Shown here: piece after piece, positions 10,191-63,807 of the stretch
Layout: every line of letters starts with the position of its first letter
Numbering within the stretch: position 1 is the stretch's first letter
Assembly: GCA_012295275.1 (NCBI GenBank)
Contig: CM022679.1
Location: forward strand, 27,528,001-27,592,000
Direction of reading: 5' to 3'
DNA from: Chrysomallon squamiferum
Lineage: Eukaryota; Animalia; Mollusca
Length of the DNA stretch: 64,000 bases
Program-made: the position numbers and the translations under genes
Notes under the pieces: model-generated
Told to the model about the DNA's origin: nothing
The model's input: only the letters and a program-made list of their open reading frames with translations
The model's database searches: none

Positions 10191-13100
10191 TCAGAGATTG
10201 GCATACGCTAATTCACAGAAGAAAGTGAAATCCTCCTGTAATAAAATAAATAAATAAATAAATAAATAATAGCAATAAAATAAAATACTCAGTCTTAATA
10301 ATTAGAGAAAAGAAAATTAAGATTACCAAGTGACTCTTTTACTATTAAAGGATTCATAGAACAGCAATACTTGGACGATGCAGCATCAGCGTTCATAAAG
10401 AACCGTGCTTTCTAAGTCAAATTTTTATTTCGATTTCATTTTGCAGATAGTAACTTGAAATTCTGACCAGTAAACGACGATATCCATGGCTTTACTCGAA
10501 ACGTTCAAAATGTGGTGTTTGAAATATGAAGACATTAAGTTCAACGCTTTATTTATTTATTTATTTACTTATTAATTTTTATTATTATTATTATTATTAT
10601 TATTATTATTATTATTATTATTATTATTATTATTATTATATTTATATTTTTTATTTATATTTTTTATTTTTTGGCCCACTGGATATTTTAAGAGTAACAA
10701 TATTCCTTTGACCAACCTTTAGACAGAACTAAAAACAACGTACAACAAAACTATTATCAGAAAGAAACTAGGAGAAAAGAATTTCTTGTTAGAAATGTTT
10801 CCACTAACAGTTACATGCCGCGAGACTTATATTCCACAACAACTGAACTGAACTGAATACATTGTCACAGCATAACTGGTTTGATTGATAACAATGTCGT
10901 ATGAACTGCAGTTACAGTATACCCAAGATAAAACGACCATCAGCAGAATATATATTTATACTGCGTAATGTCAGTTAATAGAAAGCAAATATATTTTATT
11001 TACGTAATACCAGTTAATTAGAACTTTTGTAATAGACAACTTACATTTGGTATTTTAACTATTAACTAATACTTTATGACGGTAGAATATAAAATGAAAC
11101 TGTAGGAAAATAAATTAATAAGGATTAGAAACATAGTACGAAAAACATAATAAAAAATAACAACAGCCACACACAAAAAGCCCCCAAAAAACAAACACAC
11201 ACACACACACACACACACACACACACACACACACACACACATTTCAAATAGAATTAAAAAAAATACAGCGCCAACACACGTTAACATATAGAGCGGATGC
11301 ATACTCAGTCTTTTATGGAATTTTCTACACACTTCGTTATTTGTGATTTTTTTTCTATTAATTATTAACTGTACTAATAATAAAAAATGACGGTAAAGAA
11401 AAGAAAAGAAAAGAAAAAGAACTAAAAATAACGATTGCAAACAAAATAAGAAAAAACAACAAACAAATACCAACAAAACAAAACAACAACAACAAAAAAG
11501 CCCGACACACACAAACACAAATAATAAAAAAAAATACAGCGTCACAAAATAACTTATAAAGTTGATGCATACTCAGTCTTTTAAGGAATTTCTACAAAAC
11601 TCTTTATGAAATATATGAACAAATAAGAGACCTTTGAAAACTGTACATTTGGTAGCTGCGTTTGAAAGCTCCACACCCACACACACCCACACGAAATCCA
11701 CATAGACATACACACACACACACACACACACACACACACATATATCAAAAAAAAAAATAAAAAAATACAGACAAAACACACGTTAATATATTACAAAAAT
11801 AAATAAATAATAATAATAAGAAACAACAAAAAAAAAAAAAAGAGAGAGAGAGAGAGAGAGAGAGATATATATATATATATATATATATATATATATATAT
11901 ATATATATATATATATATGACGCATACTCAGTCTTTTAAGGAATTTTCTACATATTTCGATAAAAAAAAAGTCGCACAAACAAAAATTCAAATAATAAAA
12001 TACAGCAACTAGGCCAGAGAACTTACAGTTAACGTATACTCAGTCTTTTAAGGAATTTTCTACAAATCTCTTAATGCAATGTGAAGTAAGCGGGTAAATG
12101 TTAGTTTCTATGCGTTACCGCGGACTCGTTGTTTTAATGTAAAACTTTGTAATAAATTAAAAGTCACTAACAAGTGAATGGTATCATACTAAAGATACTT
12201 TAACAATATGTGACCATAGTGTTTTCAGACATAATATATATATATATATATATTTAGTAACAAATCAGAGACCTTTGAAAACTCAACGTTTTGTAGTAGC
12301 GTTTGAAAGCGTCTGATGTTGTTGAAAATCTCAACTTCTGAGTCGAGCTGAATCCCAGACAAAATGTTGTTAACTATACACAACATGATCGCCTTCTTTT
12401 CTTCAGTATCTCTGAAATAATAATAATAATAACAACAACTAAAACAACAACAAGAACAAGAACAAGAACAACAACAACAACAACAACAACAACAACAACA
12501 ATAAATAATAATAATGGTGATGGTAATAATGATGATGCTGATGATGATAAGAAGAATTCTAAAAATGAAAGTTATTTTTATAATTACAAATTTTATTTGA
12601 TTAATTTTTTTAATTTAATCGAATAACATTAAGCACGAATTATTTGTTTTGTCATGTCATTCATTCCTTCATTCCTTCATTCATCCACCCACCCATCCAC
12701 CCACCCATCCACCCATCATTCCTTCATTTATTCAGTCACTTATTGACATGATACACCTGCACGTAATTCTCACCTGTAGACAATTGTGACAGGACGTGAT
12801 CTTGTTTTCTCTTGCTCTGTTTGCATCTTTAGAACCAGGGTTGTCAGACTGGTTATTAGTTTTGTAGGATCTGTTGTTGGTGGCCATCGCTGTACACAGT
12901 AATGTTCAATCTGCCTTTCTTGTGTTTCTCTCTGTTATAGATTTATTTATACTTATTACTGAACGTTATATTAGTATTAGAATCAGGAGGAGAGAGAACC
13001 AGAGAGACAGAGAGAGAGAATCAAAGAGAAAGACACACAGAAAAATATACACTATAGGTAGAGAGATAAATAGAAAGACTGGAAGGTAGACAGGTTCTAT

Positions 13101-61700: not shown

Positions 61701-63807
61701 AAATAATAAAAATAATATTTCATTTATCGAGCACACTTTGTGAAATGAAGATATCTTACTTAATTGAGTGGGACAAGAAATTTATGGAGACACGGCAGAA
61801 GCCCCAGCTATAAAAGTCTTAAAATATGCTGAAAAACATGCTTCAATAAATCTTCTTGCGAAAAGCAGTAGAAATGATAGATGTCTATATCAATGCATTT
61901 TCCTTTCACAAAAAAATGGCAAACACATTTTGTTTCTATAGAATTAAACGTTTTACTAAAATGATGACGAAAAACTAAAATGGATCTAACAAACTACATT
62001 TATCTCTTAAAATCTAAGGTTGGGCCCAGACTGGTGTTGTTCCATAACCCTACAGCAGTTATGATAATAATGGTGATGATGATAATAACACAAAAGTAGA
62101 AATAATAAGAAAGAAAATAAAAACGACAAAGTGAAAAAAAAAAAAAAAAAAAAAAAAAAACTTTATAAAGATAAAGGGAAACAAGCTGTGGTATACATTT
62201 TACACTATACATACTAAAAGAAAACAAAATATTTGTACTTACAGTCATATCTAAAGTAGATGCTAACTTCATGAATAAAATATGATTTTTCTAAATCTAC
62301 TTCCCACCATGTGAAACGTCTATGCTCAGATGTGTGTATGATTTTGTGCCAGTTTCCTTTAAGTATTCCATCAACAGCTCGCTGTGCATCGTTTTCACAA
62401 CCCTGTCTGTAAGAATTCTGATACGCTGCTTTGTTTAGTGCCACATTTACTGCAGAAAACAAATAATGAATTATTTATTAAACTACACACACATGAACAC
62501 AGCGAAAACGAGAGAGAGAGAGAGAGAGAGAGAGAGAGAGAGAGAGAGAGAGAGGGAGAGAGAGAGAGAGAGAGAGAGAGAGAGAGAGAGAGAGAGAGAG
62601 AGAGATTATAAGTACTTACTGAAATACACATTTATATGAAGCTGTTTATTTCCCTATTTCTTTCTCGCTCTCTGACTCTCTAACTGTCAGTATTACTATT
62701 TTTCATTCTTAATATCTTTGTATATCTGTCTACCTCTTTGCCCCAAAACGAGCCTGAATTTATTAATTTTTACATATGTGTTTTTGTGTGTGTGTGTGTG
62801 TGGGGGTGTTACATGAATGTGACACTATGAGGATTCTTCTTTGTATTTCCAAAAATATCAACCTGATATACTTAATAGATAATAGAAGTGGAATAGTTTC
62901 AAATTCAGATTTAATTTTAAGGGAAACACATAAAATTATTTAAATGTTATTGCTGTTGTAACCTGTTACAGAGCAGCGATACAGAGCAGCTTTATACACA
63001 CGCACACACGCACACACATCCGTTAGGAGAACCTTTTGTGTAATTAGTACGTGTCCATTACATGTGTCTACGTTATTATTATTTTTTAACTTATCACTTG
63101 AATTTTGTTGCTCCAAGATGAATTAGTCATATAAAACACTTAAAGTTTGGTGATTGTGTGTATATAAATCTGTGTGTGTGTGTATGTGTATGTGTGTATG
63201 TGTGTTATAATATTGGGTGTGGAATGATGAACAGAAAAAGAACAACAATACAAATAATAATAATAAGTAGGTCTTATCAAGAGGTTTAATTGCAGTGAAG
63301 GATATAAACTTTTATCCATTCTATTTCAAATAGACAGGAGATCAAATTTAAAAATCTGTGAGAAATGAAAACGATTTTAAGTGATTATTTCCGTTGCTGG
63401 TTACAGGTAATCAAAATTAGTCTTAATTATATTTAATTAAGAGAAATACAGGCTATTTGATTAATATCCTGATCTAAAGGGTAACTAAATTATTAATATT
63501 GACGTTATCATTACATTTTATATATGGTCTGTAAACTACGATAGTAAGTAGACAAACTGACATAATTATAATAAAGTTTTAAAGCAATATAATAACAGTA
63601 CATATTATTTGGATAAACACACTCTCTCACACACACACACACACACACACACATGCAGACATGTACACATTCATATATATACAGTTTTATTTATATAATT
63701 ATTTCTTAATAATCATACAGGAATTATTTGAAAACAGATTTACCAAACTCAGTGAAAGTTTGTTGAGATAATAAAATAAAAACACAGAAGAGAAACAAAG
63801 AACTCAT
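46731..63807 (-). CDS. Gene E: second receptor-type protein tyrosine phosphatase (signal peptide, F-type lectin, 8 EGF repeats, TM, D1 PTP, degenerate D2); 29 exons, about 1259 aa
   Basis: Exons on minus strand. SP: 63744-63807. F-lectin: 62243-62449, 60702-60923. EGF: 60278-60430, 58971-59123, 58591-58743, 58172-58324, 57764-57910, 57257-57397, 56869-57015, 56392-56532. TM: 56096-56189. Juxtamembrane: 55457-55554, 54770-55140. D1: 54202-54289, 53222-53298, 52916-52952, 51786-51883, 51400-51525, 51022-51167, 50656-50791, 50311-50457. D2 and tail: 50024-50057, 49534-49598, 49161-49277, 48598-48720, 47912-48069, 47663-47801, 46731-46775. All PTP exon lengths are identical to gene B; total 3780 nt. 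Confidence 0.9.
49033..49185 (-). repeat. Same 46-bp donor-containing minisatellite (about 3 units, gene E)
   Basis: Donor GT positions at 49160, 49114 and 49068. Confidence 0.95.
51182..51277 (+). repeat. 96-bp inverted copy of part of the PTP D1 AGVGRTG exon, inside an intron of gene E
   Basis: Reverse complement of 50675-50770, encoding [31 protein letters not shown] on the plus strand. It is absent from the equivalent intron of gene B. Confidence 0.95.
59660..59776 (-). pseudogene. EGF pseudo-exon in gene E
   Basis: Retains the GTACAGACAGGAGACTGTGGGAC core of the neighbouring 153-nt EGF exons. The 5' part and acceptor are replaced by a (TAA)n run, there is an internal deletion, and GGA TGG has become GGA TAG. 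Confidence 0.75.

Follow-up and report, generated by a model that had tools for sequence, protein, structure and literature searches.

Like ectodomains on unlike cytoplasmic ends: a candidate paired-receptor locus in Chrysomallon squamiferum

We analysed 64,000 nucleotides (nt) of the mollusc Chrysomallon squamiferum (GenBank assembly GCA_012295275.1, contig CM022679.1, positions 27,528,001 to 27,592,000, forward strand), hereafter the window, which contains four clustered paralogous genes named B, C, D and E. B and E encode a lectin and epidermal growth factor (EGF)-repeat ectodomain joined to a receptor protein tyrosine phosphatase (RPTP). C carries the same kind of ectodomain on a short cytoplasmic tail with tyrosine motifs, and D is a shorter, truncated relative of C. 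Like ectodomains on unlike tails suggest that B/E and C would bind the same ligand and push tyrosine phosphorylation in opposite ways. The reading that we tentatively favour, while giving it somewhat less than an even chance, is that the phosphatase receptors B and E and the tail-type receptor C carry one lectin-EGF ectodomain kept alike by sequence exchange and would have opposite phosphorylation outputs on the same fucosylated ligand, with D probably a decaying copy.

Two receptor architectures

Open reading frames (ORFs) from all six frames were compared all against all. Three minus-strand sets of colinear paralogous exons emerged, at about 10-27.6, 29.8-40.1 and 46.7-63.8 kb, with a shorter plus-strand set at 41.4-44.0 kb. 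A search with the second lectin exon of E identified 5 proteins among 20 candidates, the best being RefSeq models of Gigantopelta aegis. Two of these, P0001 (1067 residues, 'RPTP T-like') and P0003 (498 residues, 'MEGF10 isoform X2'), are 81% and 79% identical to that exon of E, respectively, and the window genes are 27 to 81% identical to them along the proteins, which fits a related yet distinct gastropod-like species. Gene models were built under the guidance of P0001 and P0003, together with splice-site and phase logic (Table 1). All frames of the four models are open and all their introns are GT-AG. Exon-for-exon colinearity, kept phases and nucleotide identities of 70-98% exclude chance similarity. 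The preliminary description of this DNA had placed four paralogs here, and its landmarks at 63807, 30482, 29805 and 10191 are indeed exon ends of our models.

The four genes share their 5' ends. As first described, all four have a 64-nt signal-peptide exon; in each it ends in phase 1 and is followed by GT. The approximately 60 nt preceding the ATG are almost identical in B, C, D and E (124 of 368 alignment columns are invariant). A common 5' untranslated region (UTR)/core promoter and signal exon in 4/4 genes hint at shared regulation. C shares with B and E the 5'UTR, the signal, lectin and EGF exons and even alignable introns. All ectodomain exons are phase 1-1, so that any combination of them keeps the frame.

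The lectin domain is split over two exons, a and b. F-type lectin sequence had been attributed to all four paralogs. The attribution stands for B, C and E, which have both exons as well as Pfam support, and only in part for D, where exon a alone is found. The lectin-a exons of B, C and E score above the Pfam curated cut-off for F5_F8_type_C_2 and also match F5_F8_type_C. That of C matches FBP32 (3CQO) at E 6.8e-6 and five further F-type lectin chains, including the pneumococcal fucolectin-related protein, Sm-hPAF and eel agglutinin (1K12). Exon b searched alone gave no match. With the lectin domain of P0003 taken whole, the alignment to FBP32 reaches E 1.6e-10, and F-type lectins are the nearest relatives of solved structure. 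F-type lectins have a fucose-site motif, His-x(~24)-Arg-x-Asp-x4-Arg/Lys (PMC5712786). The lectins of B, C and E keep the His, then Arg-Tyr-Asp, x4 and the closing Arg, with a His-to-Arg gap of 27 rather than 24. A fucosylated glycan, microbial or self, is the predicted ligand.

The EGF exons give weak Pfam matches below the cut-offs (EGF_TEN, DSL, EGF_STAB). P0003 matches the EGF region of Tie2 at E 5e-8, and the repeats are of the MEGF/Tie2 kind. One EGF exon of B, 23335-23210, is shortened and has a weak acceptor. Within C, 33510-34393 and 34686-35644 are 93-94% identical and represent a recent tandem duplication of a unit of two EGF exons and an intron. This internal duplication gives the EGF exon order a-b-c-b-c-d.

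In B and E, the ectodomain leads into a TM (transmembrane) exon, then a stop-transfer stretch of basic character and a juxtamembrane region in which YxN occurs twice. Both genes had been described as ending in tandem protein tyrosine phosphatase (PTP) domains. The first domain, D1, is intact: the WPD loop, the Cys-X5-Arg signature (HCSAGxGRTG in B) and the Q loop are all present. Three exon ORFs of B match Pfam Y_phosphatase at E 1e-9 to 1e-10, and one at 0.0031. With B compared to E, D1 has a ratio of nonsynonymous to synonymous substitution rates (dN/dS) of 0.18. The D1 of P0001 has matches to RPTP epsilon, LAR, alpha and sigma at E 1e-113 to 1e-117. What follows resembles a D2 at the limit of detection and is probably a degenerate remnant; we would correct 'tandem' to one intact domain. 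The last approximately 230 residues of B and E lack Cys-X5-Arg, and none of the seven D2-like exon ORFs of the two genes reaches Pfam E<=0.001, one B exon ORF being at 0.0026. Similarity of this region to D1 is marginal (pairwise z 3.4; hhalign probability 16.6%, E 0.0015, 97 colinear columns). An AlphaFold model of P0001 made from a 3-row alignment places the helices and strands of the D2-like region in an order parallel to D1; with a mean pLDDT of 34.8, however, it is too poor to count as evidence. The same degenerate end is present in G. aegis P0001 and Haliotis P0014; it is therefore old.

E alone has a 117-nt inverted repeat, 50675-50791 / 51161-51277, with arms 91% complementary; one arm is the 5' part of the catalytic-cysteine exon and the other lies just upstream of the WPD-loop exon. 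This placement sets a potential long pre-mRNA hairpin around the WPD-loop exon. No counterpart was found in B (0 pairs in 15800-16800). At about 11623-11676 on the minus strand, inside the last intron of B, there is a remnant of 18 residues that looks like the final part of the penultimate coding exon; none was seen in E.

C combines the lectin and EGF ectodomain with a different TM exon and a tail bearing three tyrosine motifs, as the preliminary description had it. The tail has 74 residues, against the approximately 75 given there, and each of its three tyrosines lies within a motif. YDVI is seven residues from the C-terminus, and the tyrosines of the terminal pair are 14 apart. The stop codon at 29807-29805 is followed by AATAAA about 35 nt beyond. 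The pair resembles an ITAM (immunoreceptor tyrosine-based activation motif). All five gastropod tail-type tails (C and four relatives) contain Yxx[LI]-x(6-12)-Yxx[LI], with a spacer of 9-10 and each copy at the C-terminal end. It is missing from D, from the bivalve protein P0018 and from 5/5 RPTP juxtamembrane regions. Shuffled tails give it in 5 to 129 of 5000 trials per tail. YxN is found in all the tails and juxtamembrane regions compared. Neither C nor D has a charged TM residue. The motifs of C taken alone could also be read as immunoreceptor tyrosine-based inhibition motifs (ITIMs), but conservation of the -2 position does not extend to the relatives, and this reading was set aside as weaker than the ITAM-like one. 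In the ESM Atlas, the P0003 tail reached scores of 0.88 at best, which is no more than a lead.

Comparison of the two cytoplasmic types gave no similarity between the tail of C and the juxtamembrane region of B (z -1.5). Separately, the tail of D (43856-44033) is colinear with the juxtamembrane region of B (19751-20468) from the basic stretch to YVNA-x-F (z 4.1, 1 of 500 shuffles as high). With the equal TM phases, this match may point to a cytoplasmic ancestor common to the tail and phosphatase types, although it is too weak to claim derivation of the tail from the phosphatase gene.

Likeness of the ectodomains within species

The two architectures of the window recur in related genomes, in G. 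aegis and in Haliotis. Isoform X1 of the G. aegis tail-type gene and the phosphatase P0001 are identical at 352 of 397 positions (89%) over the whole ectodomain, and the identity ends at the TM boundary. Haliotis asinina has a phosphatase with F-type lectin domain (FTLD) and EGF repeats, P0014, as well as a tail-type FTLD-EGF protein, P0006; a further tail-type protein, P0012, is found in H. rubra. The Haliotis tail-type proteins carry two lectin-EGF units in tandem. The relatives from G. aegis and H. asinina are available in RefSeq (XP_041357574.1, XP_041359117.1 to XP_041359119.1, XP_067677271.1, XP_067684253.1). These models have the same two architectures, degenerate D2-like end and tail motifs as the window genes and differ in naming, being automatically called 'RPTP T-like/kappa-like', 'MEGF10' or 'uncharacterized'. 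The protein models are thus already known under automatic names.

Identity of the lectin domains is 78-85% among B, C and E and 92% for the phosphatase type against the tail type of G. aegis, as compared with 63-67% across species. A tree was made from 16 full-length FTLDs: B, C and E; G. aegis P0001, P0003, P0007 and P0009; Haliotis P0006, P0012 and P0014; and a fish and turtle outgroup. Half domains (D, P0002, P0004, P0005) were left out, together with P0008, P0013 and P0015-P0018. The tree groups the lectins by lineage. B, C and E form one group (support 99/98), the G. aegis RPTP and tail types another (96/99), and the Haliotis RPTP and tail types a third (100/99). Approximately unbiased (AU) tests reject a grouping of the lectins by cytoplasmic type (p 5.7e-5, 1e-61 and 5.6e-52), with p-values that are generous because the groups were named after the pairwise identities had been seen.

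The aligned 5' halves of B, C and E contain 709 informative sites; B sides with E at 292 of these and with C at 270, and C sides with E at 147. Because misalignment noise is possible in low-complexity introns, only sites with ungapped flanks were used. The sites are arranged in blocks, with 312 runs where 456.7 +/- 12.6 are expected and none of 5000 shuffles as low. B and C are joined at exon 1 and lectin a, B and E in two intron stretches, and C and E at lectin b and the first EGF exon. At the protein level, lectin a of C is nearest to that of B (85%) and lectin b of C to that of E (95%). On this alignment, B, C and E have exchanged blocks of sequence, and their 5' halves form a mosaic. Taken with the tree, the mosaic supports the view that ectodomains of unlike outputs are kept alike within a species.

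A possible pairing and its alternatives

Pairs of receptors with activating and inhibitory members are a hallmark of immune recognition in vertebrates; to our knowledge, they are barely documented outside chordates. The vertebrate systems (KIR, LILR, SIRP, Siglec, Ly49) likewise consist of clustered paralogs with near-identical ectodomains and unlike signalling ends, and their ectodomains too are homogenised within species. They differ in using immunoglobulin or C-type lectin domains where the window genes have F-type lectin and EGF repeats. In the present genes, moreover, the activating motif would be in cis, with no charged-TM adaptor, and the inhibitory arm would itself be a phosphatase.

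The closest analogue is the Drosophila pair Draper-I/Draper-II of the CED-1/MEGF10 family, in which one EGF-repeat ectodomain serves opposing outputs. The ITAM of Draper-I (Y934/Y949, 15 apart) is phosphorylated by Src42A and binds Shark, while Draper-II shares that ectodomain, recruits Corkscrew, a phosphatase, and switches the signal off (PMC6219719, PMC4503800). C resembles Draper-I in the kind of its EGF repeats, its single TM segment and its ITAM-like pair (14 apart versus 15). In contrast to Draper, however, the outputs here belong to separate genes rather than splice forms, and the negative arm is a fused receptor phosphatase instead of an ITIM. The N-terminus is an F-type lectin and not of the EMI/Nimrod type of Draper, CED-1 and MEGF10, and C has no NPxY. 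An ITAM receptor signals through Syk in oyster (PMC6994640).

On this model, ligand binding would allow a Src-family kinase to phosphorylate C at the YxxL-x10-YxxI pair and at YxN. Phosphorylated C could then recruit a tandem-SH2 kinase of the Syk/Shark type and a Grb2/Drk-type adaptor, as Draper-I does. B and E, carrying the same lectin, would be drawn into the ligand patch of C instead of being excluded from it, and their active D1 would damp or reset the signal by dephosphorylating C or its effectors. B and E would in this way act as a ligand-guided inhibitory partner, a fused version of an ITIM receptor or of Draper-II recruiting SHP-2/Corkscrew. An immune role, a common ligand, co-expression and the dephosphorylation of C by B/E are what we infer.

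Ligated Draper excludes the bulky phosphatase Ptp69D, and in the kinetic-segregation model CD45 and Ptp69D are excluded from ligated receptors (PMC6219719); the ligand-binding B and E would be drawn in instead. Compared with the classical RPTPs (RPTP epsilon/alpha, LAR, CD45), B and E have a lectin and MEGF-type EGF ectodomain, and their D2-like region is degenerate far past the usual inactive D2. The eel agglutinin, striped bass FBP32 and oyster bindin belong to the same F-type lectin family and share the sugar-site motif (PMC5712786), but these proteins are secreted or acrosomal, whereas B, C and E encode type-I membrane proteins. The F-type lectin review lists C-type lectin, pentraxin, CCP, TM and FA58C among the co-occurring domains and no phosphatase; the word 'phosphatase' occurs 0 times in that text (PMC5712786). 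In our literature search, no paper came up that describes the architecture or the pairing of an ITAM-like receptor with a phosphatase bearing a lectin.

If the pairing were true, the logic of paired receptors would have evolved from other parts, namely a fused phosphatase and an ITAM-like tail on an ectodomain of F-type lectin and MEGF-type EGF repeats. There would then also be a natural test of how a phosphatase that is brought to a ligated receptor, and not kept away, tunes the signal. A still broader proposal is a paired system of new build common to peltospirid-like snails and abalones. It would have an inhibitory transmembrane phosphatase and a Draper-like ITAM partner, with ectodomains matched by gene conversion, and the ligand would gather both in a reversal of kinetic segregation. 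In this full form we consider it less likely than not.

Several observations weigh against the pairing. Lectin a of E is merely 63-66% identical to those of C and B. The dN/dS of this exon is 1.47 between C and E and 1.22 between B and E (65-68 codons, too few for a test), and that of lectin exon b with the first EGF exon is below 1. With this divergence and these ratios, E may recognise another ligand; the raised ratio possibly reflects diversifying change around its sugar site. The tail of C has no NPxY, and the ITAM-like spacer of 9-10 residues is longer than the classical 6-8. The residue at -2 of each tyrosine varies among relatives, so that even the sign of the signal from C is a guess. 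In H. asinina the two types are on different contigs (67.1 and 66.3 Mb), and in G. aegis they share one 102.9-Mb contig, close clustering being seen in the window alone. The AU p-values are generous, as said. Finally, transcription of the last exon of C is weakly hinted at by sequencing contigs over 29500-29970. Three RNA runs were compared there with a DNA-like run, all from the same organism; the RNA libraries may contain DNA, and the contigs show no splice joint. RNA run X1 has two contigs over 29780-29964, that is the coding part of the last exon and the start of the 3'UTR, and none over 29500-29659, where the DNA-like run X3 has contigs. The other two of the three RNA runs, X2 and X4, are blank over 29500-29970.

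Recent duplication and gene conversion are common in tandem families without functional pairing, which again weighs on the same side. The strongest alternative is the birth-and-death of an expanding family. Tandem duplication, shuffling of phase 1-1 exons and conversion due to proximity would have produced uncoupled receptors, the RPTPs serving adhesion or development and C scavenging or engulfment. We regard this as a serious possibility, if also one well below an even chance. The uniform exon phases would keep any such combination in frame, and the RefSeq isoforms of the G. aegis tail-type gene do skip single exons: X3 lacks lectin exon a and X2 lacks one EGF exon. The separate contigs of H. 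asinina fit as well, and the same tail cassette is found on a differently built MEGF-like protein, P0009. Fucolectin, MEGF and PTPRK are among the expanded families of G. aegis, where they are not linked together (PMC7895826). Birth-and-death accounts less readily for the near-identity of phosphatase and tail ectodomains, which the window species and G. aegis each acquired or kept on their own, and for the fact that the identity in G. aegis ends exactly at the TM boundary. The common 5'UTR and core promoter, which suggest shared regulation, also speak against uncoupled receptors. Whichever way the coupling falls, the locus suggests that part of the fucolectin, MEGF and PTPRK counts in G. aegis, a symbiont-bearing vent snail, may represent one multidomain family (PMC7895826), and the architectures correct the automatic names 'MEGF10' and 'RPTP T-like'.

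D had been counted as a third output, a decoy or an activating form, and this part of the preliminary description did not hold up well. D indeed has a C-like TM exon (77% nucleotide identity) and a C-like tail (71%) cut before the last two motifs. It also shares with C the promoter and signal exon (85%), lectin a (71%) and, as the fifth and last piece, part of the intron before the tail exon (69%). Its six exons are open with GT-AG borders, the shared 5'UTR, the signal exon and one YxN motif are kept, and dN/dS against C is below 1 (0.36-0.77 at dS 0.41-0.54). A premature stop that removes tail motifs is moreover the way in which some vertebrate paired receptors change sign. These points favour a working D. 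However, no lectin-b exon is found anywhere in 40200-46600, and the fucose site of lectin a is replaced, with Leu for His and Asn-Ser-Asn for Arg-x-Asp; the Pfam score of this exon is 22.9 bits against a curated cut-off of 27.8. The middle exons are calcium-binding-type EGFs (cbEGFs; Pfam EGF_3 E 6.3e-10), unlike those of C and nearest to G. aegis P0007 (48% identity), and they keep three and five of their six cysteines, respectively. The uncharged TM segment offers no adaptor residue. Behind the TAA, which falls on the first ITAM-like tyrosine codon of C, the rest of the lost double-tyrosine motif is still readable in frame as a relic; at the sequence level, this shows a plain nonsense change. 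With half of the lectin, the sugar residues, EGF cysteines, ITAM-like motif and charged TM residue all lacking, D is likelier a decaying copy than a decoy or activating form, and by a modest preference we take it as a decaying member and not as a third output. Three working outputs with a functional D seem improbable. Among relatives, P0002 of G. aegis is a phosphatase model with lectin exon b only; with isoform X3, half-lectin forms thus occur also among the gene models of relatives.

It is very improbable that the TM and tail exons of C are alternative terminal exons and that some transcripts from the C promoter read into B, giving a phosphatase with a double lectin-EGF ectodomain. In its favour, the last EGF exon of C ends in phase 1, lectin a of B, which lies 4.8 kb downstream on that strand, likewise starts in phase 1, and the Haliotis tail types have tandem units. 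Against it, a conserved 5'UTR, an ATG and a signal exon belong to B itself, AATAAA follows the C stop, RNA-run contigs lie on the last C exon with none on 29500-29659, and the G. aegis RefSeq models end with a homologous tail.

Positions of features and surroundings

Table 1 Features of the four receptor genes in window coordinates
Feature	Position	Strand	Description
Gene B	27606-10191	minus	26 exons, 1174 aa; signal, F-type lectin (2 exons), 7 EGF exons, TM, juxtamembrane, PTP D1, D2-like remnant
B signal-peptide exon	27606-27543	minus	64 nt, phase 1
B lectin exons	a 26714-26508, b 25134-24913	minus	exon a Pfam F5_F8_type_C_2 E 3.5e-7
B EGF exons	24680-24528, 24047-23895, 23579-23427, 23335-23210, 22942-22802, 22620-22474, 21313-21173	minus	all phase 1-1
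B TM exon	20981-20888	minus	
B juxtamembrane exons	20468-20380, 20148-19751	minus	two YxN motifs
B PTP D1	19355-15549	minus	8 exons including 37-nt micro-exon 17652-17616 found by pattern
B D2-like remnant	14254-14138, 13630-13508, 12931-12774, 12411-12273, 10235-10191	minus	5 exons
Gene C	40137-29805	minus	11 exons, 569 aa; signal, lectin a + b, 6 EGF exons, TM, tail
C signal exon	40137-40074	minus	
C lectin exons	a 39109-38912, b 37357-37136	minus	
C EGF exons	36860-36708, 35593-35441, 34886-34740, 34342-34190, 33710-33564, 31663-31523	minus	
C TM exon	30581-30482	minus	phase 1 to 2, same phase class as B/E TM exon
C tail exon	30036-29805	minus	basic stop-transfer stretch, YENT, then YKDL-x10-YDVI
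C/D spacer	40138-41404		1267 nt, separates divergent start codons of C and D
Gene D	41405-44033	plus	6 exons, 248 aa; signal, lectin a, two cbEGF-like exons, TM, truncated tail
D signal exon	41405-41468	plus	
D lectin a	42283-42486	plus	only lectin exon
D cbEGF-like exons	42713-42802, 43038-43157	plus	damaged
D TM exon	43333-43423	plus	
D tail exon	43856-44033	plus	truncated
D premature TAA and relic	44031-44081	plus	TAA at C's first ITAM-like tyrosine codon
Gene E	63807-46731	minus	27 exons, 1226 aa; built like B, but 8 EGF exons
E lectin exons	a 62449-62243, b 60923-60702	minus	exon a Pfam E 2.5e-7
E PTP D1 exons	54289-50311	minus	Pfam Y_phosphatase E 7e-11 to 8e-10, 3 exon ORFs

D is read from the plus strand, head-to-head with C. 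Around the four genes, at 1-10 kb, 27.7-29.6 kb and 43.8-46.5 kb, none of 69 ORFs matched a Pfam family at E<=0.001. Weak matches to DUF986, DUF3899, Sigma_reg_N and DUF4834 were under the cut-offs and were taken as chance. No gene was recognised in 1-10000, where 0 of the 51 ORFs have a Pfam family at the same threshold. The open frames of that region (for example 1-702) arise from long AAT-rich and other microsatellite tracts. The window is AT-rich (GC content 24-35%) with abundant microsatellites, and the first intron of C contains an (AG)58 microsatellite at 39169-39284.

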